Source: Alphaproteobacteria bacterium
GTDB taxonomy: Bacteria > Pseudomonadota > Alphaproteobacteria > MPNO01 > UBA830
DNA length: 64,000 nucleotides
Assembly: GCA_022822405.1 (NCBI GenBank)
Contig: JAJEBT010000113.1
Coordinates: 12,500 to 76,499 of the forward strand
Direction of reading: 5' to 3'
Shown here: positions 2,281 through 64,000 of the stretch, in pieces
How positions within the stretch are numbered: position 1 is the first letter of the stretch
How the letters are laid out: each line of letters begins with the position of its first letter
Program-made: the position numbers and the translations under genes
The notes under the pieces: model-generated
The model's input: only the letters and a program-made list of their open reading frames with translations
The model's database searches: none
What the model was told of the DNA's origin: nothing

Positions 2281-3210
2281 TTACAACGCTTCTAGGTCGA
2301 AATAGTCCTCGTCGATCCGCTTGATCTCATGACGGACGCGCGTTCGCACTCCGACCCCATGCCGAACCATGAGGTGCGCCAGTTCGTCACCGTCGATCAG
2401 AACGATCCGCTTCGGACTCCGCGCCACGTAATCCTTGGCGGCGCGCGTAAATTCAGCGGTGGTCACGAACACGCCCTTGGTCGTGCCTGCGGCGTCGATC
2501 GCACCCGCGAAGTTGCGCAAATCTCCCTCCCCGACGGTGTTGCCATGGGCGTACTTCTTCGCCTGCACGTACACCTCGTCCAAGCCGAGCGCATCTTCCC
2601 GGATCGTGCCGTCGATACCGCCATCGCCAGAACGTCCCGTCACGCTGCCCATCGCGGCGTCTCCACCGCCGTAGCCCATCGCGATCAGCAAATCGACAAC
2701 CGCCCGTTCAAGAAACGCCGGATCGGCATTGCGAACCCGAGCCAGCACCTCGGCTTCAAGGACGGTACGCAGTTCCCCCGCGGCACGGTCCAGGGTCTCC
2801 TCGGGCGTCTCCCCGGATTCGTTCTCTTGCTGCTCCGGGCGTTCGACACGCGGCGATTTCCGATGCGTCCGATTCTTCCATTCGACATAGGCCGGATACT
2901 GAAGCAGCAACTTCAGGTCGATACGGGCCGGGTGTCGCGACAGAAGTTGCTTGCCGTCGGAAGTTATCCGATAGACGGCGCGACGCACCCGTTCGACCAG
3001 ACCGGCATATAGAAAGTGGGTGATGCTCCAACTGACCCGATCCTTCAACTTGGTCGTGTGTCCGCCCCGGGTCCTTTCCGACAGGTCGTCCGGCGTCAGC
3101 CCTTCGGCGGCGGCGACGCGCGTGCACACTTCCGCGACCTGAACATCGCTCCCGTCCGACAATGCCTTGAGGACGGGGAGCATCAGCGACTGGAAATCAG
3201 GGACGGACAT
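2281..3210 (-). CDS. mrr: Mrr-family type IV (methylation-dependent) restriction endonuclease
   Basis: N-terminal Mrr_N (MSVPDFQSLMLPVL..RVSW) and catalytic domain (FLERAVVDLLIAMGYGG, SGDGGIDG, VYVQAKKY, KGVFVTT, IVLIDG). Confidence 0.95.
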   Translation of the reverse strand: MSVPDFQSLMLPVLKALSDGSDVQVAEVCTRVAAAEGLTPDDLSERTRGGHTTKLKDRVSWSITHFLYAGLVERVRRAVYRITSDGKQLLSRHPARIDLKLLLQYPAYVEWKNRTHRKSPRVERPEQQENESGETPEETLDRAAGELRTVLEAEVLARVRNADPAFLERAVVDLLIAMGYGGGDAAMGSVTGRSGDGGIDGTIREDALGLDEVYVQAKKYAHGNTVGEGDLRNFAGAIDAAGTTKGVFVTTAEFTRAAKDYVARSPKRIVLIDGDELAHLMVRHGVGVRTRVRHEIKRIDEDYFDLEAL

Positions 3211-3529
3211 CGGCCACCGTGCCTGTCTCCGCCGCCTGCCGGGGCGTCACGCACTTCGCGATCTCGTGGCCCGCCGCGATCTCCGCTTGGCGAAGCTCCC
3301 AGGTCTTTTGCAGGTTCAGCCAGAGTTGCGGCGTCGTTCCGAAATACCGCGCGAGCCGTAGCGCCGTGTCCGCGCTCACCCCACGCTGGCCGTTCAGGAT
3401 CATCGTCACCCGGTTCACCGGTACGCCCAGCGCCTTCGACAGCGCATTGGCCGACAGCCCGATCTCGTCGAGTTCACCGCGCAGGATTTCGCCGGGATGC
3501 ACCGGCCTCATGCCGTTCCTTGCGTTCAT
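3197..3529 (-). CDS. higA: HigA antitoxin (HTH-XRE)
   Basis: MRPVHPGEIL..LSANALSKALGVPVNRVTMILNGQRGVSADTALRLARYFGTTPQLWLNLQ; start moved to ATG 3529 behind GGAG RBS. Confidence 0.93.
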   Translation of the reverse strand: MNARNGMRPVHPGEILRGELDEIGLSANALSKALGVPVNRVTMILNGQRGVSADTALRLARYFGTTPQLWLNLQKTWELRQAEIAAGHEIAKCVTPRQAAETGTVADVRP

Positions 3530-3540
3530 GTCAGACTCCC

Positions 3541-3819
3541 TCAGTGATAATCCACGATCTCCACGTCGCATGGCCCGTCGTCCGTCCACCGGAAGCAAAC
3601 GCGCCATTGCACGTTGATCCGAATGCTGTGCTGACCGGCGCGGTCGCCCCGCAGCGCTTCCAGCCTGTTGCTCGGCAATGCGGCAAGGTCTCCGAGCGTC
3701 TCCGCGTTGTCCAGCAGGAGCAGTCGGCGCACCGCCTGATTGGCGAAGCCTTGAAACGCTGCGACGCGTCGTCCCTCGTAGAAGCGGCGCGTCTCCCGAT
3801 CCCTGAAGCTCCGTATCAT
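3541..3819 (-). CDS. higB: HigB toxin (RelE superfamily mRNA interferase)
   Basis: MIRSFRD..PSNRLEALRGDRAGQHSIRINVQWRVCFRW..VEIVDYH; toxin-first order. Confidence 0.93.
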   Translation of the reverse strand: MIRSFRDRETRRFYEGRRVAAFQGFANQAVRRLLLLDNAETLGDLAALPSNRLEALRGDRAGQHSIRINVQWRVCFRWTDDGPCDVEIVDYH

Positions 3820-33492: not shown

Positions 33493-33833
33493 CTAAACAG
33501 CCGCCCATCCGGTCGCGAGATCGACCCTGCCGCCACTGAGCAGGTCGAGCATCGCCCACTGTTCGGCGACGCGGATCGGATGATGCAGGGACAGTGCGTT
33601 GACCGTCTGCGCGAGGCGGATGCGCTCGGTGCGCGCCGCGACCTGGGCGAGCACGACATCAGGGCAAGACAGGACGCCGAGCGTCGAGAAATGACGCTCG
33701 CCGATCCACGCGGAATGCATGCCGAGCGCCTCGGCAAAGACCGCCTCCTCGGCGATGTCGCGGACTACTGGTTCGCCGTGCGGGTATTGGTCCTATAGTG
33801 GTTGTCGCTCGGCGTGAAGTAGCCGAATTCCAC
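33493..33833 (-). pseudogene. Frameshifted, 3'-truncated LLM-class oxidoreductase
   Basis: GTG 33833 reads MEFGYFTPSDNHYRTNTRTANQ then TAG; a shifted frame resumes VRDIAEEAVFAEALGMHSAWIGERHF..HHPIRVAEQWAMLDLLSGGRVDLATG and stops at 33493. Confidence 0.8.
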
Positions 33834-51099: not shown

Positions 51100-53436
51100 A
51101 TGGGACGCCCTCCGTCACCGTTCGCCACCAAGATCCCCTACGAGAAGAAGGACCTGAAGGTCGTCGGCACCAACCCGGCGGCCCGCGGCGACGCCGTGGA
51201 CAAGGTCACCGGCCGCGCCCGCTACGCCGCCGACATACGCCTGCCCGGACAGCTCATCGGCAAGGTCCTGAGAAGCCCGCATGCGCGCGCCAACGTCGTC
51301 TCGATCGACACCTCGAAGGCCGAGGGCCTTCCCGGGGTCAAGGCGGTCGTAACCCGCGACGACTTCCCGGACATGAAGGTCGAGCACGCCGCCTCCGGCG
51401 AGCTCATGGTCAACTTCCGCGACGTGACGCGGAACATGATGGCGCGGGAGAACGTGCTCTATGACGGCCACCCGGTGGCCGCGGTCGCGGCCACCAGCGA
51501 GGCGGTGGCGCGCGAGGCGCTGAAGCTGATCGAGGTCGAGTACGAGGTGCTGCCGCACGTCATCGACGTCGTCGAGGCGATGAAGCCCGATGCGCCGGTC
51601 CTCCACGACGACCAGTTCACGCGCGGGGTCGAGCCGACCCCGGACAAGCCGTCGAACATCGCGGCGCGCATGGAGAGCAAGCTCGGCGACATCGAAAAGG
51701 GCTTCGCCGAGGCCGACGTCATCGTCGAACACGAGTACAACACCAAGCCGGTCCACCAGGGCTATATCGAGCCGCAAGCCTGCGTCGCCAACTACACCGA
51801 GGGGGGCTACGCCGAGGTGTGGACCTCAACCCAGGGTCACTTCGTGTTCCGCGCCCAGATCGCCAAGCTCCTCGAGATGGACATGTCGAAGGTCAAGGTC
51901 ACGGCCGCCGAGCTCGGCGGCGGCTTCGGCGGCAAGAACAACGTCTATCTCGAACCCCTGGCGGTCGTCCTGTCGCGCAAGGCAAAGCGGCCGGTCGGCA
52001 TGGCCATGACCCGGGACGAGGTCTTCCGCTCGACCGGCCCGACCTCGGGAACCAACGTCAAGGTCAAGATGGGCGCGAACCGGGACGGTCGCATCACCGC
52101 GGCGCAGGCCGAGCTCAACTACCAGTCCGGCGCCTATGCCGGCTCGTCGCTGCCGCTCGCGACCATCACCGTCTTCACGCGCTACGATCTCGAGAATGTC
52201 CTCGTCGTCGGCCACGACGTCACCACCAACCGGCCCAAGGTCGCGGCCTACCGCGCCCCCGGCGCGCCAATGGTCGCCTTCGGCGTCGAGACGGTGATCG
52301 ACGAACTTGCGGAGGAACTCGGCATCGACCCGCTGGACTTCCGTCTCATGAACGCGGCCAAGGAGGGCACCCAGACGCATTTCGGGCCCAAGCTCGGACA
52401 GATCGGCTTTATCCAGACGCTCGAACGCGCCAAGGCCCACGCGCACATGCAGGAAAAGCTCGGACCCGACCAGGGGCGCGGCATCGCATCGGGCTTCTGG
52501 TTCACGCTCGGCGCGGAGACCTCTGCGACGCTCAATATCGGCGAGGACGGCACGGCAAGCCTGATCTTCGGGACCGTCGACGTCACCGGTGGCGGGCGCG
52601 CGGCGCTCGGCATGATCGTGGCGGAGGAGCTTGGCATCCCCTTCGAGAAGGTGCGGACGATGTCGGGTGACACCAGCGCGCTCGGCTTCAACTTCATGAC
52701 GGCCGGCAGCCGCGGTACCGCCGCGGGCAGCATGGCCGCCGTCAAGGCATCGCGGGACGCCATCGCACGCATGTGCGAGATCGCCGCCCGCAAGTGGGAG
52801 GTCGATCCGGACCAGGTGGTCTGGGAGAACGGCACGGCGCGGCCGGCCGGCGCCAATGTCGGCGACTTCGCGCCGATGACGGTCGCGGAACTCGCACGGG
52901 AAGCCTCGTGGTTCGGCGGCACCATCGCCGGACATGCCGAGATCAATGTCGCCATGGGCGGCCCGGGCTTCGGGACCCATATCGTCGATGTCGAGGTCGA
53001 TCGCAGGACCGGCGCCGTCAAGGTCCTCCGCTACACCATCGTCCAGGACGCCGGCGAGGCGGTGTTCCCGGAATTCATCGAGGGGCAGTTCCAGGGCGGT
53101 GCGGTCCAGGGCATCGGTTTCGCGCTGAACGAGGAGTACATCTACAACGAGAAGGGCGTGCTCGAGAATCCCGGGTTCCTGGACTACCGGGTGCCGGTGG
53201 CGTCGGACGTGCCGTTCATCAACACGGAGATCGTCGAGGTTCCCAACCCGGACCATCCCTACGGCGTGCGCGGCATCGGCGAGGTGCCGATCATCCCGCC
53301 GCTCGCGGCGATCTCGAACGCGATCTACGACGCCGTCGGCGTACGCCTTCGCGACCATCCGATGTCGCCGCCCAAGGTGCTCAAGGCGCTCCGGGAACGG
53401 GCGGCGGAGACGGGCGACCAGGTCGCCGCAGAGTAG
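51100..53436 (+). CDS. Xanthine dehydrogenase family molybdopterin subunit
   Basis: DKVTGRARY, HQGYIEP, LGGGFGGK, AYRAPG, RGIGE; start MGRPPS after AAGGA. Confidence 0.92.
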   Translation: MGRPPSPFATKIPYEKKDLKVVGTNPAARGDAVDKVTGRARYAADIRLPGQLIGKVLRSPHARANVVSIDTSKAEGLPGVKAVVTRDDFPDMKVEHAASGELMVNFRDVTRNMMARENVLYDGHPVAAVAATSEAVAREALKLIEVEYEVLPHVIDVVEAMKPDAPVLHDDQFTRGVEPTPDKPSNIAARMESKLGDIEKGFAEADVIVEHEYNTKPVHQGYIEPQACVANYTEGGYAEVWTSTQGHFVFRAQIAKLLEMDMSKVKVTAAELGGGFGGKNNVYLEPLAVVLSRKAKRPVGMAMTRDEVFRSTGPTSGTNVKVKMGANRDGRITAAQAELNYQSGAYAGSSLPLATITVFTRYDLENVLVVGHDVTTNRPKVAAYRAPGAPMVAFGVETVIDELAEELGIDPLDFRLMNAAKEGTQTHFGPKLGQIGFIQTLERAKAHAHMQEKLGPDQGRGIASGFWFTLGAETSATLNIGEDGTASLIFGTVDVTGGGRAALGMIVAEELGIPFEKVRTMSGDTSALGFNFMTAGSRGTAAGSMAAVKASRDAIARMCEIAARKWEVDPDQVVWENGTARPAGANVGDFAPMTVAELAREASWFGGTIAGHAEINVAMGGPGFGTHIVDVEVDRRTGAVKVLRYTIVQDAGEAVFPEFIEGQFQGGAVQGIGFALNEEYIYNEKGVLENPGFLDYRVPVASDVPFINTEIVEVPNPDHPYGVRGIGEVPIIPPLAAISNAIYDAVGVRLRDHPMSPPKVLKALRERAAETGDQVAAE

Positions 53437-53669
53437 CGGCGGCCGGATCCCGCGGACCGGAGCGCCTGCGGCGTTCCCGAAGCGGGCCAGCGGGCCCACC
53501 GGCGGCGCCCCGGAACGGAGCTGCCAGCCCGCAATCTCCGATGCGGCTGCCGGCTCGAATCGGCAGCCCCTCCGCCACGCCGCATCGGCGCGCCTGATGC
53601 ATGTGTGCCGCCACATCCTATAATCGCGGAAGAGGGACGCAGACGCGCCGCCAACAGGGGAACGGGGTC

Positions 53670-54650
53670 ATGGAAGGCAAGATCGCGCTTGAGGAACACT
53701 ACGCCATAGAGGACACCCTCATGGATTCGGCAGGCTACCTGCCGGAGCACACTTGGGCGGAACTCTCCGCCCGCGTCCTCGACATCGAGGGCCGGCGCAT
53801 CGAGGAGATGGACAGGAACGGCGTCGAACTGATGATCCTGTCGCTGAACGCGCCGGCGGTGCAGGCGATCCCGGACCGCAGGAGGGCCAACGAGGTAGCG
53901 CGCAAGTCGAACGACGTGCTCGCAGAATGGGTCGAGCGTCATCCCGGACGCTTCCGCGGCTTCGCCGCCTTGCCGCTTCAGGATGTCGACATGGCCTGCG
54001 CCGAGATGCAACGCTGCGTCAACGACCTCGGATTCGTAGGCGCGCTGGTCAACGGCTTCTCGCAAATCGACGAACCGGACACAGCCTACTATTACGACCT
54101 GCCGCAGTTCCGGCCGTTCTGGCAAGTCATGGCCGAACTCGAGGTCCCGTTCTATCTCCATCCGCGCAATCCGCTTCCGAGCATGGCGCAGATCTATGAC
54201 GGCCATCCCTGGCTGATGGGCCCCACCTGGGCCTTCGGACAGGAGACCGCCGTCCATGCCCTGCGGCTGATGGCTTGCGGGCTGTTCGACGAACACCCGG
54301 ACCTGCAGATCGTCCTGGGACACATGGGCGAAGGGTTGCCGTTCAGCATCTGGCGCTGCGACAACCGCAACGCGTGGACCGAGGCGCCGCCAGCCTACCC
54401 CGCCAAGCGCACCTTCTCGGAGTATCTCCAGGAGAACTTCTACATCACCACGTCCGGGAATTTCCGGACCCAGGCACTGATCAACGCCATGCTGGAGGTG
54501 GGCGCGGACCGCATCCTGTTCTCGGCCGACTGGCCGTTCGAGAACATCGACCACGCCGCCATATGGTTCGACAGCTGCACGATCAGCGAAGCCGACCGCC
54601 GGAAGATCGGTCGCCTCAATTCACTGGAACTGTTCGGAATCGAACTCTGA
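53670..54650 (+). CDS. Amidohydrolase-family non-oxidative dihydroxybenzoate (gamma-resorcylate-type) decarboxylase
   Basis: MEGKIALEEH, SLNAPAVQAIPD, YLHPRNP, GPTWAF, GHMGEGLP, SGNFRT, FSADWPFE closely follow the Rhizobium enzyme as recalled. Confidence 0.88.
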   Translation: MEGKIALEEHYAIEDTLMDSAGYLPEHTWAELSARVLDIEGRRIEEMDRNGVELMILSLNAPAVQAIPDRRRANEVARKSNDVLAEWVERHPGRFRGFAALPLQDVDMACAEMQRCVNDLGFVGALVNGFSQIDEPDTAYYYDLPQFRPFWQVMAELEVPFYLHPRNPLPSMAQIYDGHPWLMGPTWAFGQETAVHALRLMACGLFDEHPDLQIVLGHMGEGLPFSIWRCDNRNAWTEAPPAYPAKRTFSEYLQENFYITTSGNFRTQALINAMLEVGADRILFSADWPFENIDHAAIWFDSCTISEADRRKIGRLNSLELFGIEL

Positions 54651-54706
54651 CCGGCACGGCCATGGCATTCGCCGGCAGCCGCCCACCGGCTGGTTTCGCT
54701 CGCCGG

Positions 54707-55195
54707 TCAGGCGCCGCAGCCGCTGCAGAGACCCTGAATCTCGATCGTCTGGCGCGAGACATCGAAGCCGGCGCTGGCCGTCTTTTCTGCTATCAGAAAG
54801 GCGATGTCGGGATCGTCGAGCTCCGCGGTCTGGCCGCACCCGGTGCAGATCAGGAATTGGCCGACATGCCCGCCCCCCGGCTTGCTGCAACCGACAAAGG
54901 CGTTCAGCGATTCGATCCTGTGCACGAATCCGTGTTCGAGCAGGAATTCGAGAGCGCGGTAGACGGTCGGCGGCGCTGTCTTGCGGCGCTCCTCTCGCAG
55001 CACCTCGAGAATATCGTACGCGCCGATAGGCCCGTGACGCTGCCACACGATCTCGAGAACCCGCCGACGCGTGTGGGTGAAGCGGAGATTGCGTTCGAAA
55101 CAGATCTTCTCGGCGGTCTTCAACGCATCGTCTATGCAATGATCATGGTCGTGATCACGCGAAGGAAAACCGCCCGCCAGAACTGCTTCCGCCAT
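54707..55195 (-). CDS. zur: Zinc uptake regulator (Fur family)
   Basis: HDHDHC N-terminus, GAYDIL, PPTVYRALEFL, HRIESLNAF, two CxxC. Confidence 0.88.
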   Translation of the reverse strand: MAEAVLAGGFPSRDHDHDHCIDDALKTAEKICFERNLRFTHTRRRVLEIVWQRHGPIGAYDILEVLREERRKTAPPTVYRALEFLLEHGFVHRIESLNAFVGCSKPGGGHVGQFLICTGCGQTAELDDPDIAFLIAEKTASAGFDVSRQTIEIQGLCSGCGA

Positions 55196-55377
55196 TGCAC
55201 CGATTCCGCCTCTTGGCTCACGATCCCGAGATCATACCACAATTGTTGCATCGGCACGCGCGAACGCGGTCTGGCGCGCATGGCGGCCCGTACGGTCGCG
55301 ACGCGACCGCGCGTCCGGCCGTACGGGACAGGGGGTCGCCAAGGCTCATTCACGAATCATCCACAAGGAGCAATCGC

Positions 55378-55980
55378 ATGAAACAGGCGCCCTGCCCCCC
55401 CGACATCGATCCGCAGTCGGGAAACAGGCTTCCATTGCCCGCGCGGGACGGACTCGATGACGCGGGACAACGTGTCTATGATCAGCTCGCCGACCCCGGC
55501 GGCGGCAGTCTTGCCGGACTTCGCGGGCCCGGCGGCATAAGGCTGCACAGCCCGGCGCTCTCCGCCTGCCTGCGCCCCGCCAACCTCTATCTCCGGGATC
55601 GGGCCGGCATCGATCCCCGCTGGCGGGAGGTCGCGATACTGACGACGGCGCGCGAACATGACTGTCGGTTCGAATGGGCCGCGCACGAGCCCGAGGCTCG
55701 CCGGGTGGGCGTCTCCGACGACGTGATCGAGGCGATCCGCACGCGCGGTCCTGTCGACGGGCTCGACGATCGCAGTGCGGCAATCATTGCCTTCGGACGC
55801 GAACTGTTCGGCAGACGCCAGGTATCGCCCGAGACCTACCGCCGGCTGGCGGATGGTCTTGAGCAGCGCCTGCTCGTCGATCTCGTTCACCTCATGGGCA
55901 TGTACGCAATGACCGCAGCCACGCTCATCGCGTTCGATGCGCAACTGCCCGCGGACGCGGAGGCCGATCCCCCATCCTGA
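55378..55980 (+). CDS. Carboxymuconolactone decarboxylase (CMD/AhpD-like) family protein
   Basis: RLPLP..REVAILTTARE..FEWAAHE. Confidence 0.85.
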   Translation: MKQAPCPPDIDPQSGNRLPLPARDGLDDAGQRVYDQLADPGGGSLAGLRGPGGIRLHSPALSACLRPANLYLRDRAGIDPRWREVAILTTAREHDCRFEWAAHEPEARRVGVSDDVIEAIRTRGPVDGLDDRSAAIIAFGRELFGRRQVSPETYRRLADGLEQRLLVDLVHLMGMYAMTAATLIAFDAQLPADAEADPPS

Positions 55981-56009
55981 CGACGGACGGGTGTCCGGAA
56001 TGCGCCGGG

Positions 56010-56543
56010 TCAGCCGTCCGGTTCGAGATCGACCTCAAGCGCGCCGAGCACCCTCACATGAGACACATAGGCACCGACGAGCATGGTCAGCTCGACGATC
56101 TCGCGATCGTCGAAATGCTCCCGAAGCGGCCGGAAGGCAGCTTCGGGCACTGCGGCCGCAGCCGCCATCGCATCAGCATAGGCGAGCGCGGCGCGTTCGC
56201 GCTGGTCAAACAGCGGAGAGTTGCGCCAGTCCTTCAGGGCCTCACAGGCCTCCGCCGAAAGACCCTCGGCTTCCGCGAGCTTCGGGACATGCTGGCGAAG
56301 CACGTAGGCGGACGCGGAAGCATGGGCCAGCCTTATGATCACGATCTCGCGCAGCCGTCCGTCGATCTCCGTCTCCCAGCGCACGGCGTTCACGTGCTCG
56401 AACCAGCTCTGCGCGAGCGGAGGGCTGTGCGCCAGCATGCGGTAGACGTTGATCACCCGGCCGCGCCGCCGGCCGCGAATGCGGGCCGCGAAATCGGCAA
56501 GGCCGGGTACATCCTCAGGATTGATCAGTGGCACGCGGGCCAT
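56010..56543 (-). CDS. Carboxymuconolactone decarboxylase (CMD/AhpD-like) family protein
   Basis: MLAHSP..LREIVIIR..YVLRQH..ERAALAYAD..EIVELT. Confidence 0.85.
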   Translation of the reverse strand: MARVPLINPEDVPGLADFAARIRGRRRGRVINVYRMLAHSPPLAQSWFEHVNAVRWETEIDGRLREIVIIRLAHASASAYVLRQHVPKLAEAEGLSAEACEALKDWRNSPLFDQRERAALAYADAMAAAAAVPEAAFRPLREHFDDREIVELTMLVGAYVSHVRVLGALEVDLEPDG

Positions 56544-56624
56544 AGCGGCAGGTTCACTCCGCCTCGCCGCTTTTCCTGCATCGCAAAGGTCGTAACTGCC
56601 TTCAACCAGAATGCGCTGAGGAGA

Positions 56625-56653
56625 AGGTTAGCGGCCCGAATCTAAGCTGTCAA
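56625..56653 (-). promoter_or_regulatory. Sigma70-type promoter facing the CMD gene, with a GANTC site in the spacer
   Basis: Minus strand TTGACA-N17-TAACCT; GAATC at 56638-56642. Confidence 0.6.
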
Positions 56654-56657
56654 CACG

Positions 56658-56688
56658 AAAAAGGGCGCCGGTGTGTAGCCAGCGCCCT
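56658..56688 (-). terminator. Intrinsic terminator on minus strand
   Basis: GGGCGCTGG-CTACACA-CCGGCGCCC followed by TTTTT. Confidence 0.7.
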
Positions 56689-56808
56689 CGATCGTGTAGA
56701 GAGAGTTTCGATCGGCCACCCCCCCCCCCCTCCTCCTTCCGCTCTTCGTTCTTCGGAGAGAAAAGGAAAGGGAAAAAGGCAGGACCAAAACGCTCACCCC
56801 TTCTGACA
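56658..56808 (-). ncRNA. Predicted counter-transcribed RNA (ctRNA) upstream of repC
   Basis: Promoter at 56843-56815, U-rich tract near 56760-56777 and strong terminator at 56658-56688; same location as ctRNAs of repABC/repC replicons. Ends approximate. Confidence 0.55.
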
Positions 56809-56862
56809 AGGTGAGATTTAACAGGTGTCCGAGTCCCTGTCAACAAGGGTGGCCGATCGAAA
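56706..56862. repeat. 16-bp perfect long-range inverted repeat flanking the ctRNA promoter region
   Basis: TTTCGATCGGCCACCC (56706-56721) and GGGTGGCCGATCGAAA (56847-56862). Confidence 0.85.
56815..56843 (-). promoter_or_regulatory. Antisense promoter in repC leader
   Basis: TTGACA-N17-TAAATC with GAGTC (GANTC) at 56831-56835. Confidence 0.65.
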
Positions 56863-56903
56863 AACTCTACCGGCAAAAAAATTTTCGGGCCGGCGTGCCG
56901 GTC

Positions 56904-58331
56904 ATGGACATCAGAGAAAATCCTCTTCGCGATCCGCCATCGGATCAGGAATGCAGCACTGGCGCCACTTTCTTCGCCGGGCTCCCCGACAGCATCGAAA
57001 ACCGGTTCGAGTTCGTGCGCCTGGCGCGAGAGATCGGGACGGCCGGCGGCTGGACGCCGGCGCTGGTCGAGCACCTCGAGTTGCTGCTGGAGTGGTCGCG
57101 CCCGCAGGACTGGGAGGCGAGCGCCAGGCCTGTCGTCTGGCTCTCGGTCAACGCGACCGCCGCGCAGCTCGGCGTGTGCCCGGCGACGGTCCGGAACCAT
57201 GAGCGGGCGATGGAAGCGCTCGGCGCGATCAAGGTCACGGCCGTGGGCAACGGGCGCCGCTGCGGACGCCGGGGCGAGGACGGCGCGATCGTCTGGGCCT
57301 GGGGGGTCGACCTTGCGCCGCTCCCTGCCATCCTGCCGCGGCTTCGAAAGGAGGCGGCCGAACAGCGCCGGCGCAACGACGTCTTCGTCCAGGCCCGGCA
57401 TGAAGCGCTGGATCTGCAGAGGCGTCTCCGGGAGGCGATAGACGCGGCCGTGGGCCGCGGCGCTGGCGATCGCGGTGCGCTCGCGCTCCGCGATCGGATC
57501 CGGCGGATCGGCCAGAAATGGGGGCGCCGCAGACGGATCGAGGGCGTCCTGGCCTGGTGCAGGATGCTCGAACGCCTGCTCGCCCTCGTCACGCGGGCGT
57601 TCGGCGGGCAGGCCGCACGCAGCGAGGACACCGTGGCCTCCCGGGGCACCGCCTTCGCCCGCTCGGTTGCGGCCGAAATCGCCGAATCGACTGCTTCGAA
57701 ACCGGCAGAGGGCGGCGGCCGAGAAGCCGAGGCTTCCAACTCTCGCAACGGGAATTTCCGGCCGATGCAACCGGATTTTTCGATGCAAGTTAATTACTTA
57801 CCTATTGCCGCTGATTCCTATCAGGTAAGCCCAGAGGCGTCCGACAAGGCGCCCTCGCAACCGCCAGGGCACGCCGCAGGGGGTAATGGCCTTCAAGGGA
57901 GGCGGACCGATGGCGCCCGAAACCCCGCCGGCGGCGGGGGCGGGGCGGCGAGGGCCCGAAACGAGAAGGTTCCGATCGCCGCGATAGCGGAACTGGCGGC
58001 TGCCAGCGACCTCGTCTGGGTCGCCGACCCTGACAACTGGAACGCTCTCGTCGACGCTGCCTACCGCGCCAGCGGCGTGCTCGGCATTCAGCAGGCCAGC
58101 TGGGCCGATGCGTGCCGGGTGCTCGGACGCTATCCGGCAGCCGCGGCGGTGATCTTGATCGCGCTCAAGTTCGAGCGGAACAAGGTCCGGCTGCCCGACG
58201 GCTATCTCCGGGCGATGACCTGTCGGGCGCTGGAAGGCCGGCTCCACCTGGCCACATCGGTCTTCGGCTGGCTGATCGAGGTCGGCAAGGCCGTGGCGCG
58301 ACCGGCTGGCCGCGGGGCCGCGGCGCAATGA
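56904..58331 (+). CDS. repC: Plasmid replication initiator RepC (repABC type, divergent)
   Basis: LELLLEWSRPQDWE..RPVVWLS..LGV..NGRRCGRR..AWGVDLAPL (RP-C domain); C-terminal LGIQQASWADACRVLG..AAAVILI..PDGYLRAM..G.LHL..SVFG. Confidence 0.85.
   Translation: MDIRENPLRDPPSDQECSTGATFFAGLPDSIENRFEFVRLAREIGTAGGWTPALVEHLELLLEWSRPQDWEASARPVVWLSVNATAAQLGVCPATVRNHERAMEALGAIKVTAVGNGRRCGRRGEDGAIVWAWGVDLAPLPAILPRLRKEAAEQRRRNDVFVQARHEALDLQRRLREAIDAAVGRGAGDRGALALRDRIRRIGQKWGRRRRIEGVLAWCRMLERLLALVTRAFGGQAARSEDTVASRGTAFARSVAAEIAESTASKPAEGGGREAEASNSRNGNFRPMQPDFSMQVNYLPIAADSYQVSPEASDKAPSQPPGHAAGGNGLQGRRTDGARNPAGGGGGAARARNEKVPIAAIAELAAASDLVWVADPDNWNALVDAAYRASGVLGIQQASWADACRVLGRYPAAAAVILIALKFERNKVRLPDGYLRAMTCRALEGRLHLATSVFGWLIEVGKAVARPAGRGAAAQ
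57740..57830. other. Candidate intragenic replication origin within repC
   Basis: AT-rich island (GTTAATTACTTACCTATT), imperfect direct repeats GCAACGGGAATTTC / GCAACCGGATTTTT 21 bp apart, GANTC at 57813 (and 57684). Confidence 0.5.
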
Positions 58332-58396
58332 GCTCCAAAAACACACAACAAGGGCGGCATCCCGCCGCCCGGAACTTCAACAAGGAGGAACTGACC

Positions 58397-59035
58397 ATGC
58401 GAATCATCTCTATCGTCTCCCAGAAAGGCGGCGCGGGAAAAACCACCCTCGCCGTCAATCTCGGCGCCGCGGCCGAGGAGGCCGGGACCAGGACCAGGAT
58501 CTACGACATCGATCCCCAGGGCTCGGCGATGACCTGGTTCGACCAGCGGAGGGGGCGTGCGCCGGCGGTCCGGATGGCGCTGCCGCACCGTCTGCCGGCG
58601 GATCTCGAGGAGGCGGAGGCCGACGGCGTTGAGCTGGCGATTGTCGATTCGGCGCCGCACGCGGAGAGCGCGTCCCTGACGGCCGCAAGGGTTGCCGACC
58701 TCGTGCTGATTCCCTGCAGGCCAAGCTTGTTCGACCTTGCAGCCATCGAGGCCACACTCGAGATCGCGCAGCTCTCCGGAACGGCCGCGGTGATCGCCCT
58801 GAACGCCGTTCCAGCCCGGGGACCGCTGGTCGGCGAGGCCACGGCGGCGCTGTCCCGCCGCGGCGTCGGGATCCTGGGGCATACCGTCGGGCAACGGCAG
58901 GCCTTTGTGCACGCACTCAACCACGGCCTCGGAGTGGTGGAGTACGAGCCACGGGGCAAGGCCGCGGCGGAGATCCGCGGCCTTTGGGAGGCCCTGGTGC
59001 GCCGGGAACGGCCGGACCTGCGGCTCGTCGGCTGA
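58397..59035 (+). CDS. parA: ParA family partition ATPase (short, no N-terminal HTH)
   Basis: QKGGAGKTT, DIDPQGS, IVDSAP, LIPCRPSLFD; AAGGAGGAA RBS. Confidence 0.92.
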   Translation: MRIISIVSQKGGAGKTTLAVNLGAAAEEAGTRTRIYDIDPQGSAMTWFDQRRGRAPAVRMALPHRLPADLEEAEADGVELAIVDSAPHAESASLTAARVADLVLIPCRPSLFDLAAIEATLEIAQLSGTAAVIALNAVPARGPLVGEATAALSRRGVGILGHTVGQRQAFVHALNHGLGVVEYEPRGKAAAEIRGLWEALVRRERPDLRLVG

Positions 59036-59069
59036 CACGCTGGGCCACCGAATTCCCTGGGAGGGGATC

Positions 59070-59987
59070 ATGAAGAGAAAGAGTTTTGCTGACGCAATGA
59101 ACATCACGCCCCAGCCTGCCGCTGATGGTGCGACGCCTCCGGCCGACACCTCGCGCGCGAGGCGCGTCATTCCGATCGCGCTGGCGGAAATCCACGCATC
59201 GGATCGGCGGCGGCCCGTCGACCCGGAACAGGTGCAGGTTATTGCCGAATCGGTCGGGGAGATCGGGCTGCAGTCGCCGATAGCCGTGCGGCTGGATCCC
59301 GCTGATGCGGCCGGCTATCGCCTCGTGGCCGGCGCGCACCGGATTGCGGCCGCGGCGGAGCTCGGCTGGACGAGGATCGACGCCCTGGTGGTCGACGGCA
59401 GCGACGATGAGCTCGCGCTGATGGAGATCGACGAAAACCTCGCGCGGGCCGAGCTGACGCCGCTTGACCGGGCGCTGTTTCTGGCCGAGCGCAAGGCGAT
59501 CTACCTGCGCCTTCATCCGGGGGCGGGAAAGCCCGGGCGGCCGAGGCAGTCGGCTAATTGTGCAAAGTTTGCACAATTTCAGCCGCGGTCCTTCGAGGAG
59601 GACGCGGAGAGGCAGGTTGGGCTGTCCAGGCGCGGCGTCTATCGGGCGCTGGAGATCGGCACCGGCCTCGTTCCGACGCTGGCGGAAGCGCTCCGTGACA
59701 CGCCGTTATCGCGCCGCGAAGGCGACCTTTTCCGGCTCGCGCGGATGCCCGCGGCCGATCAGGAAGCCGCGGCCGAGCGCATCCGGGCGGGCGACGAGGT
59801 GAAGCCGGCAAAACTCGGGGATGTCGTCAAGACGTCGCCGCGCGAGCGCCAGGCCAAGACGGCCCGGGATGACCTGGTGGAAGCCTGGAACCGGGCGCGG
59901 CCCGAAGAGCGCCGGTGGTTCCTGGAGTGGCTGCGGGAGCGAAACCAACGGGGCGGGCCGCGATCGCCGGAAGGAAGAGAACGATGA
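59070..59987 (+). CDS. parB: ParB/Srx-domain protein with HTH
   Basis: GLQSPIAVR..YRLVAGAHR (GxxR), EIDENLARAELT, VGLSRRGVYR HTH. Confidence 0.85.
   Translation: MKRKSFADAMNITPQPAADGATPPADTSRARRVIPIALAEIHASDRRRPVDPEQVQVIAESVGEIGLQSPIAVRLDPADAAGYRLVAGAHRIAAAAELGWTRIDALVVDGSDDELALMEIDENLARAELTPLDRALFLAERKAIYLRLHPGAGKPGRPRQSANCAKFAQFQPRSFEEDAERQVGLSRRGVYRALEIGTGLVPTLAEALRDTPLSRREGDLFRLARMPAADQEAAAERIRAGDEVKPAKLGDVVKTSPRERQAKTARDDLVEAWNRARPEERRWFLEWLRERNQRGGPRSPEGRER
59556..59578. repeat. Perfect 11-1-11 palindrome inside parB
   Basis: AATTGTGCAAA-G-TTTGCACAATT, AT-rich in a very GC-rich gene. Confidence 0.9.
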
Positions 59988-60274
59988 CCTATATCGAGGG
60001 CTTGAGCATGTACCTCGACGACGAGGCGACCAACGCCGTTGAGAAGGCGTTCGCGGTCGAGACCGCAAGCGGAGCGAACTTCACGCTGATCTATCGCCGC
60101 GCCGCGAGCGAAGAAATGCGCTGGATGGTGCGCGGGGCCGGCGGCACGGAGTTCCATTCGGATTTCCTTGATGCCTACAACGCGATGATGCTGACCCTGA
60201 CAGTCGGCGGAGCCGAGAGCCCGCACCCGCCTGAAAGGAGAGAAGGCGGGGGACTGACATGCACAGAGAGGTAA
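59984..60274 (+). CDS. Hypothetical protein
   Basis: ATGA overlap with parB stop, purine-rich RBS, non-shadow composition (MTYIEGLSMYLDD..). Confidence 0.65.
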   Translation: MTYIEGLSMYLDDEATNAVEKAFAVETASGANFTLIYRRAASEEMRWMVRGAGGTEFHSDFLDAYNAMMLTLTVGGAESPHPPERREGGGLTCTER

Positions 60275-60411
60275 CCGCGGGGATCGTGGAACAGCTGCGC
60301 AAGGGTGTGCGGCCGTGGACCGCGAGCGGTGCGCGGGGCCGGGCGTGGGAGCGCTGCGGCGAGGAGGATCGCCGCTGGTTCCTGGAGCGCATCCGGAAGC
60401 AAACCCGATGA
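60259..60411 (+). CDS. 50-aa mini-ORF: ArdC-like N-terminus fused to a copy of the ParB C-terminal motif
   Basis: MHREVTAGIVEQLRKGVRPW..AWERCGEEDRRWFLERIRKQTR; below ORF-track cut-off; GGGGGA upstream. Confidence 0.55.
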   Translation: MHREVTAGIVEQLRKGVRPWTASGARGRAWERCGEEDRRWFLERIRKQTR

Positions 60412-60475
60412 CGTGAGTGTATTCTGCGACGATTGCACCGGGGCCGGAGCCGAGACGAGCGAGGGGGATTGACTG

Positions 60476-61513
60476 ATGAGGTATCGCGTGATGATGGAGT
60501 GCGGCAAGGGATTCTGGATCTTCCTCGAGCCCAGAGCGCCGGCGAACGCGCCGTTGACGGCGCTCCTCGACGATTCGCCGGTCTTCCGGAGATTCGCCGG
60601 CCACCTCCTCGGCGATGTCGGTCCCGAGCGGGATCCGCGGCGTGCCGCGGAGCTGGCGCGAAACTGGTTCTATGGCGGCGGCCAGGCCGGGCACGAGATC
60701 GTCTCCGTGGAGGAGACCCGGATCTCGCCGCCGGCGGAGCATGGCAGGATCATGGTCGAGGACTTCGTCGACTACGATGTCATCCTGGGCCGGCCGTTCG
60801 CCAGCGCGGCGCTGGTGCTCGAGTTCCGGGCCGGGGACATCCGGACCGGGCCGATCGTGCTGCGGACGGCCGAGATCGACGGAATCCGCGGAGACGCGCC
60901 GGCGGGCGATGCCTGGAAGGCGGCGACGGTGAGCATCGAGGCGCCGCGGCAGATCGGCGAGGAGTGCATGGCCGGGCGTGTGCAGATCGGCATCATCGCG
61001 CATGAGCTCCTGCCCAGGATCGAGGCCTGGTGGGAGCTGGAACGGGAGGATCCGGACTGGGAGCGGCGGGCGGAGGAGTTCCGCGCGTGGTTCCGGGATT
61101 TCGACTGGACCGACGGGCGCCGGCGCCGCGAGCTGCGCGGCGTGGTGGCGCCCGAGGACTACGCGATCGCGTGCGACGGGCCCCTCGTGGCGGGCGACCT
61201 GATCCGGTGGGCGGAGGACGTGCCGGCGGGAGAGGACGGCGCGCGGCCGCTGGGGCCGAGGACGATCGAGGGCGAGATCCGGGAGTGCCGGACGGCCGCC
61301 GAGATCGCCGACGACGCATTGCTGATCCGGGTCGACGCTGCCGAGGGTGTGGAGCCGCCCCGGCCCGACGACGCGTTGACGCGCCATCATCGGGATCTGC
61401 TGAAGATCGGATGCCGGCGAGCGGAGGTGGACGAGGCCGCGCGCGAGGCCCTCGTCACCCACAGCGAGACCGCGCGCGCCGCGGTCCGCGAGGGCGGCAG
61501 ACTGGGAGCCTGA
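60476..61513 (+). CDS. Hypothetical protein
   Basis: 345-aa ORF with GAGGGGG RBS, same strand as module, high GC at third positions. Confidence 0.75.
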   Translation: MRYRVMMECGKGFWIFLEPRAPANAPLTALLDDSPVFRRFAGHLLGDVGPERDPRRAAELARNWFYGGGQAGHEIVSVEETRISPPAEHGRIMVEDFVDYDVILGRPFASAALVLEFRAGDIRTGPIVLRTAEIDGIRGDAPAGDAWKAATVSIEAPRQIGEECMAGRVQIGIIAHELLPRIEAWWELEREDPDWERRAEEFRAWFRDFDWTDGRRRRELRGVVAPEDYAIACDGPLVAGDLIRWAEDVPAGEDGARPLGPRTIEGEIRECRTAAEIADDALLIRVDAAEGVEPPRPDDALTRHHRDLLKIGCRRAEVDEAAREALVTHSETARAAVREGGRLGA

Positions 61514-61519
61514 CGGGAC

Positions 61520-61864
61520 ATGTCCGCGGCGGGGAAGTTCCCCGGTTGCGTCCTGCTGGTGAGGATAGATCCGGCGCGGCGCATGCGGCGCTACTATCGG
61601 ATAGAAATCAGCCCCAGCCTGATCGGCGGCTGGCTCATGGTCCGGGAATGGGGCCGGCTGGGATCCCGAGGCCGGACGCGGCGGCGGCATTTCGAGACCC
61701 GGGCCGAGGCCGAGGAGGCCATGGTGCGGCTGGAGCGCGAAAAGCGGCGCCGCGGGTACCGGGCGACATGGGAGGCTGGATCGAGGGAAGCGAGAAGTGG
61801 AAAGGGGGGGGGTATATACCTAAGTGACCAAATAAGCCGAGGCGGAGATTCCGGCCGCAGCTAG
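61520..61864 (+). CDS. Stand-alone WGR domain protein
   Basis: RIDPARRMRRYYRI..REWGRLG..EKRRRGY. Confidence 0.85.
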   Translation: MSAAGKFPGCVLLVRIDPARRMRRYYRIEISPSLIGGWLMVREWGRLGSRGRTRRRHFETRAEAEEAMVRLEREKRRRGYRATWEAGSREARSGKGGGIYLSDQISRGGDSGRS

Positions 61865-62322
61865 GGAGTTGCGGCTCCCGACGGACGAGGGTAGGCGATG
61901 GTTACTGATCCAGTAATCCCGTTGTAGGCCATCGTTACGTGCTGAAGAAGTGTCCTGCCCATGAGCGCCGAGTGCGGCTGGCCGCCGGCATGGAGGTGCA
62001 CCCCAGCGAATTTCCCGGACAGAACCACCCCTAAAACGGGGATGAATATCTGAGCAAGATGGACATTCACCTCGGCCGATCCGTGAGCACCAGATACCTG
62101 CTGACGATCAATGATCGGCAAGTCTACTGTGGTGGCAATCGAGGAGTCGATGCAACTTTCAGATGCTCCAGTATCCACCAAGGCATGATATTCGGTATTG
62201 GCCAGATTCGGAGTGTGGCCAACTCGATAAGCTGGATCGAAACCTATACACACATGGAGCGTAGGGCCGAACTGGACCAGACTATCAGGTTGGCCAGGGA
62301 ACCCGCACTCAGCCTGAGGCAT
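61861..62322 (-). CDS. Retropepsin-like (clan AA) aspartyl protease
   Basis: ALVDTGASESCI catalytic motif and LMGRTLL C-terminal motif; single domain, no signal peptide. Confidence 0.85.
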   Translation of the reverse strand: MPQAECGFPGQPDSLVQFGPTLHVCIGFDPAYRVGHTPNLANTEYHALVDTGASESCIDSSIATTVDLPIIDRQQVSGAHGSAEVNVHLAQIFIPVLGVVLSGKFAGVHLHAGGQPHSALMGRTLLQHVTMAYNGITGSVTIAYPRPSGAATP

Positions 62323-62578
62323 GCGCAGCCACTGGATTGTAGAGAACGGACGCGGGCAACGTGATCGGGGGGGCTCCCACCTTCCTGATCAGATAAGGTC
62401 CCCGCCCGAACTGCTCAACCGCGTACTCTGCCGCCTGCTCGAACGTATCGTAGATGCCTACAAGCACCTGGCTGTGCACGATCACCCACTTCCCCAAGTG
62501 ATCCGTTTCGAGCCCGCTACGAATTCCTTCATACGCAGCAATCTCCTTGGACAGGGTCGGCGTCGTCGTATCAGACAT
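62309..62578 (-). CDS. Small DUF5678-like protein coupled to the protease
   Basis: EIAAYE..L..HLGKWVIVH..LVGIYDTFEQA..FG..PYLIRKVG; overlaps protease start by 14 nt; GAGGGG RBS. Confidence 0.7.
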   Translation of the reverse strand: MSDTTTPTLSKEIAAYEGIRSGLETDHLGKWVIVHSQVLVGIYDTFEQAAEYAVEQFGRGPYLIRKVGAPPITLPASVLYNPVAAHASG

Positions 62579-62925
62579 TTGCCCCTCCCCCCTCTTGTCA
62601 GCGTCTCACCCAAGCGTAATATGGCCCGACATGTCTTAGCTGTCGGTCTCTCCGTGTTTTGATGAGGGCCACAACCCTAAGGCATGCATTGTTACCTGTA
62701 AATAGTGCCCGTGACCGCTTGGTCACGCTTCCACGAGCTGCGGGAACGCCGGCGCGCGGCGTGAGATTCGCCTGTTGGTGACGATTTGGGAGCTCAGGAG
62801 GCCTCTCTCGTGGCCTGAAGGCGGGGCGGCGAGCGATGATCCGGGGCGCGAATTTTGAAGACGGGGGTGATGGGTATAGAACCGGCTTGCCCTTGCCGGC
62901 TATGGCGGGGCGGACAGGAGGCCCC

Positions 62926-64000
62926 ATGAGCCAGCGAGACAGGAAGGGCGCGATCTACGCCCGCTATAGTTCCGCTATGCAGAATCCGAGATCCATCGAG
63001 GACCAGCTGGTTCTCTGTCGACGAAGGATTCCGGATGGCGCCGCGGGCGCGGAGATCGACGTCTACGTCGATCGCGCCGAGACCGCGACCTCCATGTATG
63101 AGCGCGACGGACTGCACCGGCTGCTGCGCGATGTCGCGGACGGGCTGGTGGGTTTCGTGCTGGCGGAATCCCTTGACCGCATCTCCCGGGATCTGGCGGA
63201 TCTGGCGGGGTTCTACAAGCGCCTGCAGTTCCACGACGTGGAGCTGAGCACGGTCGAGGAGGGGCGGATCACGCCCCTGCATGTGGGCCTGAAGGGCGTG
63301 ATGAACCAGGAACACATATCAAGCCTGGCCCTGAAGACGCGGCGCGGCATGGAGGGCGTCGTAAGGCAAGGGCGGGCGACCGGCGGCGTCGCCTACGGCT
63401 ACCGGGTCGCCAACCGGATCAACCCCGACGGGCAGATCGTGCGCGGATTGCGGGAGATCGACGTCGATCAGGCGGAGGTGGTGCGCCGGATCTACCGATG
63501 GTACGCGGACGGCAGGGGCGTACGCTGGATCGCTGACCAGCTCAACGCCGAAGGCATCCCGGCGCCAGGGGGAGGGCTATGGAAGACGGGGGTGATCAAC
63601 GGACACGCGAAGCGGCGGAACGGAATCCTGCAGAACGAACTCTATTGCGGCCGGCGGGTGTTCGGCAGAACCAGGAGCCGGCGTGATCCGGACACCGGGC
63701 GCCGGCGGGCGCGCTTCATGCCGCCTGACGAATGGACCGTTGTGGAGGTGCCGGAGCTCCGGATCATCGAAGAGGATCTCTGGGCGGTCGCGCAACTCCG
63801 GCGGAAGGCGGGCAAGCGGAGCGGGCCGGGACGGCGTACGAACCGGCCGCTCACGGGGCTCGTGCGCTGCGGAATGTGCGGCGGCCGTATGACGATTCAT
63901 CAACGTGCACGGTATGCCTGTCTGACGCGGCAGGAGACGGGGGCTTGCGCGATGCGGCGGCGCGTTGCGGCCGAGGACGTAGAGCAGACAGCAGCGCAGC
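62926..64000 (+). CDS. Large serine recombinase (integrase), runs off the right edge
   Basis: Not in ORF track. ATG 62926 after AGGAGG: AIYARYSS..SIEDQ, ESLDRISR, KTRRG, GGVAYGY, ILQNELY.G, zinc ribbon LTGLVRCGMCGG..YAC..GAC. Confidence 0.93.
   Translation, partial: MSQRDRKGAIYARYSSAMQNPRSIEDQLVLCRRRIPDGAAGAEIDVYVDRAETATSMYERDGLHRLLRDVADGLVGFVLAESLDRISRDLADLAGFYKRLQFHDVELSTVEEGRITPLHVGLKGVMNQEHISSLALKTRRGMEGVVRQGRATGGVAYGYRVANRINPDGQIVRGLREIDVDQAEVVRRIYRWYADGRGVRWIADQLNAEGIPAPGGGLWKTGVINGHAKRRNGILQNELYCGRRVFGRTRSRRDPDTGRRRARFMPPDEWTVVEVPELRIIEEDLWAVAQLRRKAGKRSGPGRRTNRPLTGLVRCGMCGGRMTIHQRARYACLTRQETGACAMRRRVAAEDVEQTAAQ

Follow-up and report, generated by a model that had tools for sequence, protein, structure and literature searches.

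The window analysed here, a stretch of 64,000 nucleotides (G000:C148:12500-76499), belongs to the 85,098-bp contig C148 of an alphaproteobacterial metagenome bin (G000, the source genome; 222 contigs, 4.98 Mb, 65% GC), and the public runs containing the stretch are labelled as sponge metagenome. At its right end it holds, on the plus strand, repC, parA, parB, several small genes, a gene for a WGR-domain protein and a gene for a large serine recombinase (LSR). This order beside housekeeping-type genes had been described in an earlier note on this DNA (hereafter the original prediction), and the Pfam and NCBIfam assignments agree with it. To the left are found chromosomal-type genes (gltBD, uppP, hisN, ctaA, an NfuA-like gene and zur) together with aromatic-degradation genes. 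As argued below, the repC-parA-parB arm is probably the left portion of a chromosomally inserted element, either integrative conjugative or mobilizable, with a yciW-like gene on one side of the insertion and a 2-hydroxyacid dehydrogenase gene on the other. Its features are collected in Table 1.

Table 1. Features of the repC-parA-parB arm and its left boundary (window positions).
Feature	Position	Strand	Evidence or remarks
YciW-like / carboxymuconolactone decarboxylase family gene	56010..56543	-	left flank, outside the element; Pfam CMD 3.5e-9; NCBIfam YciW-related
Left attachment junction (attL)	56551..56563	.	GGTTC (56551-56555) also at the right junction on contig C71; homology to three congeners ends here
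repC leader, 348 nt	56556..56903	+	two invariant CTGTCAACA boxes: 56647-56655, 56837-56846
Candidate counter-transcribed (antisense) RNA (ctRNA), ~155 nt	56655..56809	-	terminator scan; GC-rich hairpin (56689-56661), then U run
Candidate antisense promoter	56816..56843	-	-35 TTGACA (56838-56843), 16-nt spacer, -10 TTAAAT (56816-56821); read from sequence
repC, 475 aa, divergent RepC-family initiator	56904..58331	+	Pfam RP-C and RP-C_C; full-length alignment with relatives
AT-rich dip in repC, candidate replication origin (oriV)	57749..57829	.	GC 0.45 versus 0.70 for the gene
parA, small Walker-type partition ATPase, 212 aa, without helix-turn-helix (HTH)	58397..59035	+	Pfam, NCBIfam
parB, 305 aa from first Met after parA	59070..59987	+	ParB_N 3e-10; TIGR00180 67 bits versus 58; translation
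Open reading frame (ORF), 119 aa, without family match	59915..60274	+	Pfam, PHROGs searched
ORF, 345 aa, GC at third codon positions (GC3) 0.90, without family match	60476..61513	+	77% aa identity in the G002 relative
WGR-domain protein, 114 aa	61520..61864	+	Pfam WGR 2.4e-18
Retropepsin-like aspartic protease, 153 aa	61861..62322	-	Pfam gag-asp_proteas 9e-7, Asp_protease_2
ORF, 89 aa, without family match	62309..62578	-	Pfam, PHROGs searched
Large serine recombinase (LSR)	62836..64000 in window; full gene 62836-64530	+	Resolvase, Recombinase and Zn_ribbon_recom domains

Both RepC domains were found (RP-C N-terminal, 5.5e-21; RP-C_C, 1.5e-18), with 75.6 bits for PF03428 (cut-off 24.4) and 67.4 bits for PF11800 (cut-off 32.6), and the NCBIfam equivalog RepABC_RepC was matched at 141.4 bits, slightly below its cut-off of 150. 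An alternative start of parA at 58328 overlaps the repC stop codon as ATGA, and ParA comprises about 212-235 aa. The protein is ParA_partition-like (175 bits, cut-off 180) and stays far below the cut-off of RepA TIGR03453 (35.9 bits versus 348), in line with the short ParA without HTH of the original prediction. ParB reached 53.9 bits on RepB TIGR03454 (cut-off 201.5), and its best profile by far was the phage ParB-like family phrog_3264 (1.6e-52); the proposed closeness to Mu-like prophage ParB proteins rather than RepB is therefore partly borne out. Both the gene order and the RepA/RepB scores set the arrangement apart from canonical repABC, as had been stated before. No family in PHROGs or Pfam was matched by the small ORFs, and the start of the 119-aa ORF is uncertain because it overlaps the end of parB. 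For the 345-aa ORF, the ESM Atlas returned weak leads only (<=0.85, DUF7699-like), which were not used. Within this region a 43-nt direct repeat was observed (59904-59946 and 60364-60406, 77% identical), the first copy of which codes for EERRWFLEWLRERN at the ParB C-terminus. A similar peptide, EDRRWFLERIRKQT, occurs in a start-less frame between the 119-aa and 345-aa ORFs, pointing perhaps to a gene that was missed or to a duplication of the ParB tail.

The break between chromosome and element falls at 56555|56556, with 56556 as the first element base. The surroundings of this site were compared with three congeners, of which G001 and G004 are single-contig chromosomes and G002 consists of two large pieces. 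Window positions 52500-56555 are matched at 91% identity in G002 (G002:C2), where the homology runs up to 56555 and then straight into sequence equal to contig C71 of G000 from about 2119. The G004 and G001 chromosomes show the empty site, the yciW-like gene being joined directly to the 2-hydroxyacid dehydrogenase gene of C71. Since the flanks lie side by side in G002, G004 and G001, the inserted DNA of G000 amounts to at least 16.0 kb on one contig (C148:69055-85098) and 2.1 kb on another (C71:1-2118, carrying CobW, DUF1826 and a 100-aa ORF). The original prediction was hence right in postulating an inserted chromosomal element, but its coordinates have to be revised, because the element starts at 56556 instead of 56620, repC starts at 56904 and the LSR gene runs on to 64530, past the window. 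Furthermore, the term 'minimal' does not suit an unclosed insertion of at least 18 kb.

The left junction could also be followed in sequencing runs that were examined as Logan contigs. Contigs from X1 and X2, which are possibly the source, and from X3, which belongs to another study (66 nt across), bridge attL, hence three runs from two studies contain it. A contig from X4 shows 0 differences to the reference over 2055 nt of the flank and departs from it exactly at the junction (window 56555). Because independent contigs cross attL and X4 departs there, the junction is neither a chimera nor fixed in the population, and the identical X4 flank argues for a recent gain or loss of the element. A metagenome bin of 222 contigs, with a congener assembled in two large pieces, might give reason to regard the contig as a chromid or plasmid with its native origin at this place, or the 56.6-kb junction as an assembly chimera. 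The probability of either is close to nil, because the G001 and G004 chromosomes carry both flanks adjoining without the element, the Logan contigs cross the junction, dnaA of G000 sits on another contig, and the element holds the sole RepC in the genome. The native chromid origin was therefore rejected, also considering the core genes on the flanks, and so was the chimeric junction.

The element is not alone. A sample of its order comprising 78 genomes from 24 genera was searched for PF03428, which was found in 10 genomes belonging to 2 genera, among them G041, G042, G043 and G047 as well as G040 and G048 of the second genus. An LSR homologue is located on the same contig within 15 kb for 15 of the 16 RepC matches tested, a count from which the G042 match was left out. 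These linked RepCs are distributed over G000 (1), G002 (1, with split LSR), G001 (3), G004 (2), G040 (2), G047 (2), G048 (1) and G043 (3), and the sole match without a linked LSR occurs in G041 (0/1). parA follows repC on the same strand in 8/9 loci of the second genus as well as in G000, G001c and G004a. In the two second-genus loci with sequence reaching that far (L040, L047), parB comes next and, judged by coordinates, then the LSR. At G001c, repC, parA, parB and LSR are arranged back to back, and at G001a and G001b repC is directly followed by the LSR. Hence, repC with or without parAB plus a same-strand LSR is a conserved module in two genera, and the repC-parA-parB-LSR arrangement described in the original prediction is a recurrent one.

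The RepC clade is rare and comprises 6 proteins at E<=1e-20 among 5.8 billion, and beyond the RepC-ParB fusion of G002 one further 50%-identity cluster is more than 50% identical, the next ones reaching 34-42%. In a class sample of 401 genomes, 29 LSR homologues (34-46% identity) were found outside the order, with no RepC, ParA or ParB within 1.5 kb. A pattern scan with the single RepC protein found nothing among genome contigs, and the scan with a RepC alignment gave two loci there, namely the G002 remnant and a canonical repABC-like locus of Poseidonocella. Among metagenome contigs the alignment scan gave three distant loci (25-26% identity), which were discarded; their parA lies on the opposite strand.

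The LSR is a protein of 564 aa with Met31 as likely start and the active-site motif YARYSS..Q. Its domains PF00239, PF07508 and PF13408 all score above their cut-offs, and the NCBIfam matches to XisF and Ccr are weak. Contig C148 runs 8.6 kb past the window end. There, a 109-aa ORF on the minus strand is followed by the gene of a 1730-aa TrwC/MobF relaxase-helicase (window-equivalent 65243-70435; TrwC 8e-60; MobF NF041492 191 bits versus a cut-off of 100; AAA_30 helicase). The original prediction had noted that no relaxase is visible, because the window ends before this gene. Past the relaxase a tyrosine recombinase gene is located (window-equivalent 71277-72347, minus strand), and then the contig ends. 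The TrwC C-terminal part and the DNA after it (L001:14764-16300, window-equivalent 69264-70800) are found in small contigs of about twofold depth in X1 and X2, therefore this stretch looks repeated.

The LSR is the sole recombinase common to the family and for this reason the likely integrase of the element. One could also assign integration to the tyrosine recombinase, which carries both phage-integrase domains and would fit the classic habit of such enzymes to integrate at tRNA 3' ends with a common core of about 12 nt, leaving to the LSR another task, e.g. resolution or inversion. We consider this very unlikely. The tyrosine recombinase is Xer-like by NCBIfam, and a partial copy of it, 86% identical, occurs on contig C118 together with dnaA and a TrwC-like gene. 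No homologue of it was found in 60 kb of the G004a element at tRNA-Ser, and none in the approximately 9.5-kb stretch common to both G001 copies (L029/L030), whereas LSR homologues lie near 15/16 RepC loci.

The gene for tRNA-Ser(CGA) is the attachment place of the G002 relative and of G004a, with the element abutting the tRNA 3' end, and the G002 element begins at the same first base as the G000 element, but directly at this tRNA. In the second genus, tRNA-Met(CAT) serves G040a and G048, and others bear only CCCCCGCAACCA; the terminal 12 nt of the tRNA are thus retained in copies at other sites. G004b is found at a non-tRNA site; its left end still opens with CACCCTCCGCCA, the last 12 nt of the tRNA. 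The element DNA of G000 opens at 56555/56556 with CACTCCGCC, which is similar to the same 12 nt of tRNA-Ser(CGA). With elements at tRNA 3' ends and the last ~12 nt of the tRNA at their left ends, the family thus targets and restores tRNA 3' ends. Right ends are less clear. A second copy of the tRNA core was not found within 56 kb at the G004a right end, and at G001a and G001b the sequences diverge inside coding sequence, with no clean end. Of attL and attR, which the original prediction had proposed to find by extending the contig, the left one is exact, and the right one, placed on C71, is uncertain. Regarding the integration features expected of integrative conjugative elements (ICEs), an exact left end and the LSR are present.

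In G002, the surroundings of the attachment site show a break in synteny. The DNA left of tRNA-Ser is located on piece 1 beside the decayed element (G002:C1:2384480, L012), and the counterpart of what comes after the tRNA in G000 (from C89:11130 onward) is placed mid-way in piece 2 (G002:C2:1318775, L027). Piece 1 carries dnaA; piece 2, the larger one, gave neither dnaA nor RepC, only weak AAA matches. The break may stem from faulty assembly or from a rearrangement at the element.

The region upstream of repC provides a candidate for its control. In addition to the boxes listed in Table 1, the leader has a C12 tract (56719-56730) and a 22-nt inverted repeat (56700-56721 / 56847-56868) that flanks the antisense region. 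The -35 element of the candidate promoter belongs to the box nearer to repC, read on the minus strand, and the hairpin with its U run is met about 95-160 nt farther along this strand. The TGTCAA box is invariant in 4/4 close relatives and was found in 8/8 second-genus leaders; a consensus promoter scan of the leader gave 0 sites, a scan which demands A at position 2 of the -10 element. The candidate antisense RNA measures about 95-116 nt in relatives. Its terminator stem keeps pairing through five compensatory double changes between G000/G002 and both G004 copies, and the same two-tier hairpin was obtained in 12/12 box-bearing leaders (4 of this genus, 8 of the other; z -5.3 to -7.9), with 0/200 shuffles folding as well. 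The leaders were folded one by one, because RNAalifold on the MAFFT alignment had the stems out of register (only 5 pairs). No Rfam family matched the leader at E<=5, the sole matches being microRNA models on a poly-C/purine hairpin, below gathering scores. ctRNAs control repC in repABC/repC plasmids, and the antisense unit looks like a candidate ctRNA of this type. Such an RNA would answer the need for RepC to stay quiet while the element is integrated, a need the original prediction had recognised. Within the candidate antisense RNA, the contig of X2 is one C shorter in the C12 tract, and two second-genus elements have runs of G8 and G11 at the equivalent RNA place, with UGGCC after them. 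These differences may come from sequencing noise or from variability of the tract.

Inside repC, an AT-rich dip is found at 55-70% of the gene length in 5/5 family repC genes (GC 0.41-0.55 versus 0.69-0.78). The conserved candidate antisense promoter and terminator in the repC leader (12/15) and the AT-rich dip within repC (5/5) are new observations. The oriV of repABC plasmids is located inside repC, and the antisense unit and the dip resemble the control and the origin of repC plasmids.

Free-living relatives of the element were searched among plasmids. Megablast of 56600-64000 against PLSDB (72,556 plasmids) gave no match. tblastn of RepC against the plasmids yielded 196 records, all below 60% identity and none covering 80% of the query, and tblastn of the LSR yielded 57 records, likewise all below 60%. 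The one plasmid LSR match that was examined (Komagataeibacter) has no RepC nearby. In a quick tree, which contains few plasmid rows on long branches and includes G042 with its unchecked LSR linkage, a branch (SH-aLRT 93) separates 10 element RepCs from 5 plasmid RepCs (1 repABC, 4 solo). Solo repC is common on plasmids, 4/5 of the plasmid loci examined being without repAB. It might be asked whether RepC is a vegetative plasmid initiator at all. The absence of a free-plasmid relative from these searches, the location of all family members seen in chromosomes or large contigs, and the equal depth of element and flank (see below) would also suit a protein with a transient role (e.g. repair-type replication preceding the transfer of the excised circle) or a DNA-binding regulator, in an element that is never a plasmid. 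This is quite unlikely in our view, because ParA and ParB directly downstream, a ctRNA-like unit and an AT-rich core in repC are hallmarks of stable low-copy repC replicons.

The conjugation functions of the family are best seen in G004a, the best-preserved relative, which is located in a closed chromosome. tRNA-Ser(CGA) is followed there by repC, parA, parB, restriction-modification genes, the LSR (55% identity to that of G000), ArdC, a homologue of the 109-aa ORF and TrwC (43% over 1284 aa). Past TrwC, methylases, a Toprim/LPD3 polyvalent protein, a coupling-protein region and genes for DotI/IcmL, DotH/IcmK, TcpQ-like and DUF6750 proteins were identified. By its gene content G004a is an ICE with a predicted type IVB-like system, and with TrwC, ArdC, the coupling protein and the Dot/Icm-like genes the family looks like ICEs. 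The statement that no type IV secretion system is visible hence does not extend to the relatives. On the assembled part of the G000 element, the interior of which is missing, no coupling protein or mating-pair formation genes were found; this part carries an integrase and a relaxase without a complete secretion system, which would fit an integrative mobilizable element (IME).

The one type IV coupling protein (T4CP) and Dot/Icm-like block of G000 is located on contig C78 and shows 66-73% DNA identity to the G004a block. It extends over about C78:5700-19700 (L037) with a DUF6750 protein, a 995-aa protein, a 908-aa protein, the T4CP and then a PIN toxin pair. Its flanks are chromosomal, with aldehyde dehydrogenase on one side and ring hydroxylase, rpsD and leuA on the other, and it is 91% identical to G002:C1:2349454-2366062, about 18 kb from the tRNA-Ser of G002. 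The C78 block is a locus of its own, and any contribution it makes to transfer would at most be in trans. The G000 genome gave no match to PF03135 VirB4, a model that may not cover type IVB ATPases. Further copies of the block are present in G001 (three) and G003 (one), though G003 is without RepC. On G001:C1, two near-identical repC-LSR modules are present, and a copy of the Dot/Icm-like block is located about 140 kb away from each (346 kb/484-497 kb; 5394 kb/5534-5547 kb). This equal spacing in both pairs hints at two copies of a very large element.

Taken together, we infer excision, replication and partition of the element from its gene content. The LSR would integrate the element and, with a directionality factor, excise it. 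The excised circle would then be replicated by RepC from an origin inside repC and partitioned by ParAB, and the antisense RNA would hold RepC low, also in the integrated state. TrwC would nick oriT for transfer via the Dot/Icm-like type IV system, and since this system is found in G000 only at C78, transfer may need help in trans. In a wider and more tentative reading, which we regard as possible but doubtful, the family represents a distinct repC-replicon lineage permanently coupled to a tRNA-targeting LSR. Its members would be true integrative repC plasmids or ICEs, alternating between the chromosome and a plasmid state under ParAB partition and ctRNA control, and would move by Dot/Icm-like conjugation.

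Several points weigh against the reading as left arm of an integrative conjugative or mobilizable element. First, the element is unclosed: C148 ends after the tyrosine recombinase, neither the end of C148 nor the start of C71 is overlapped by another contig, and when joining by end k-mers was attempted, no contig had the final 20-127 nt of C148, or the initial ones of C71, in common. The C71 right arm (CobW, DUF1826) has an 87%-identical counterpart elsewhere in G002, hence the insertion may be composite, with right end and size uncertain. Second, the left end of the G000 element (CAC--TCCGCC) lacks 2 nt of the tRNA core and occupies a non-tRNA site, and the tRNA-Ser site of G000 itself (C89) is empty. 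Moreover, tRNA targeting with a 12-nt common core is more typical of tyrosine integrases. Third, contigs of the element are about as deep as those of the flank (X1 12.4 and 10.7 versus 11.3; X2 17.7 versus 18.2). The coverage ratio, which the original prediction had named as a check, therefore gives no sign of extra copies, contig depth being a poor measure of copy number. An excised circle, attP or empty-site read was not directly seen among the assembled contigs. Finally, no parS was identified, the antisense motif and boxes are absent from the 3 G001 leaders (3/15), and the G002 relative has decayed, with a RepC-ParB fusion and a split LSR.

Part of these observations would also be expected from a stranded, decaying remnant, which was once mobile and is now fixed at a secondary site, with no excision, replication or transfer. 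The shortened core at a non-tRNA site, the unassembled interior and possibly composite right arm, the clearly degraded sister element in G002, the depth close to that of the flank and the location of the G000 secretion block at another locus, flanked by rpsD and leuA, are in agreement with it. Nevertheless, this explanation is rather unlikely, because the backbone genes are all open and full length (the RepC, LSR and TrwC frames align with relatives over all or nearly all of their length), the AT-rich core and the putative antisense unit are preserved intact, and the site is polymorphic, as seen from the X4 flank that leaves the reference at the junction. We therefore retain the reading as an integrative conjugative or mobilizable element as the probable one.

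Compared with known systems, the element shares with repABC and solo-repC plasmids a RepC with both Pfam domains and, with repABC plasmids, the AT-rich stretch inside repC; the small candidate antisense unit just upstream of repC would have its counterpart in the ctRNA of repABC/repC plasmids. It differs from repABC in the order repC-parA-parB instead of repA-repB-repC, in ParA and ParB that are not RepA and RepB by NCBIfam, and in a RepC below the equivalog cut-off. Unlike in repABC/repC plasmids, no Rfam ctRNA family matches the leader, and the replicon is integrated and tied to an LSR, its RepCs branching apart from the 5 plasmid RepCs sampled. 'repC family' replicons are named in PMC3832669. 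IMEs with Rep_3, RepA/RepC and ParB are described in PMC5704250, as are SGI1 and TnGBS, the latter with theta replication. For PIME1, a preprint (bioRxiv 10.64898/2026.01.12.698999) gives excision, an approximately 8-fold amplification and a requirement for repA-oriV, and PIMEs replicate after excision. Integrative elements carrying replicons and partition genes are already established, so the 'new class' of the original prediction is to be replaced by a small, apparently undescribed family.

SGI1 and the PIMEs of Pseudomonadota are similar in being chromosomal elements with integrase, replication initiator and mobilization genes, for which replication is expected only after excision. They use tyrosine integrases and iteron or IncQ-type replicons, unlike the present element with its LSR, alphaproteobacterial RepC (PF03428), ParAB and candidate antisense-RNA unit. 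SXT/R391, the Tn4371 family (repA-parA-parB) and actinomycete integrative conjugative elements (AICEs) such as pSAM2 have theta or rolling-circle replication and partition modules. With these and TnGBS the family shares the combination of an integrated conjugative element with replication and partition genes, as the relaxase, coupling protein and type IV secretion genes of G004a indicate, but its initiator is RepC, its integrase appears to be an LSR aimed at tRNA 3' ends, and its secretion genes are Dot/Icm-like (DotI/IcmL, DotH/IcmK). The LSR itself has the three-domain architecture and active-site serine motif of phiC31, Bxb1, TnpX/TndX, CcrAB and XisF; unlike in those, the primary sites are tRNA gene 3' ends, the last ~12 nt of which are carried by the element. 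To our knowledge, tRNA 3'-end targeting is unusual for LSRs, and the replicating ICEs and IMEs known to us combine iteron-type or rolling-circle replicons with tyrosine integrases or DDE transposases. A full-text literature search, which covered neither subscription journals nor supplements, found no paper on an alphaproteobacterial RepC coupled to a serine integrase.

Replicating ICEs and IMEs blur the line between plasmids and integrated elements. The present family joins RepC, the usual plasmid initiator of Alphaproteobacteria, with apparent antisense-RNA control and a putative internal origin, and ParAB to a tRNA-aimed LSR, and at least one member carries type IVB-like conjugation genes. 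If the replicon works, repC plasmids, ICEs and perhaps chromids would be linked by a natural route. There would also be a compact replicon-integrase cassette for little-studied marine Alphaproteobacteria, and a series of serine integrases whose tRNA attachment sites are defined. Should the switching between plasmid and chromosome be true, such elements could seed chromids or large rearrangements, for which the synteny break at the G002 copy is a hint. If the replicon does not work, the element would be one more mosaic genomic island.

Two minor observations concern the window left of the element. Amid the aromatic-degradation genes, a HigA antitoxin gene (TIGR02607, 1.4e-26) is located at 3197-3819 on the minus strand with a small ORF upstream, probably forming a HigBA pair. 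Moreover, a 75-aa ORF (33493-33720, minus strand) matches luciferase-like monooxygenases in their N-terminal part only; it adjoins two full-length paralogues and is probably a gene fragment.

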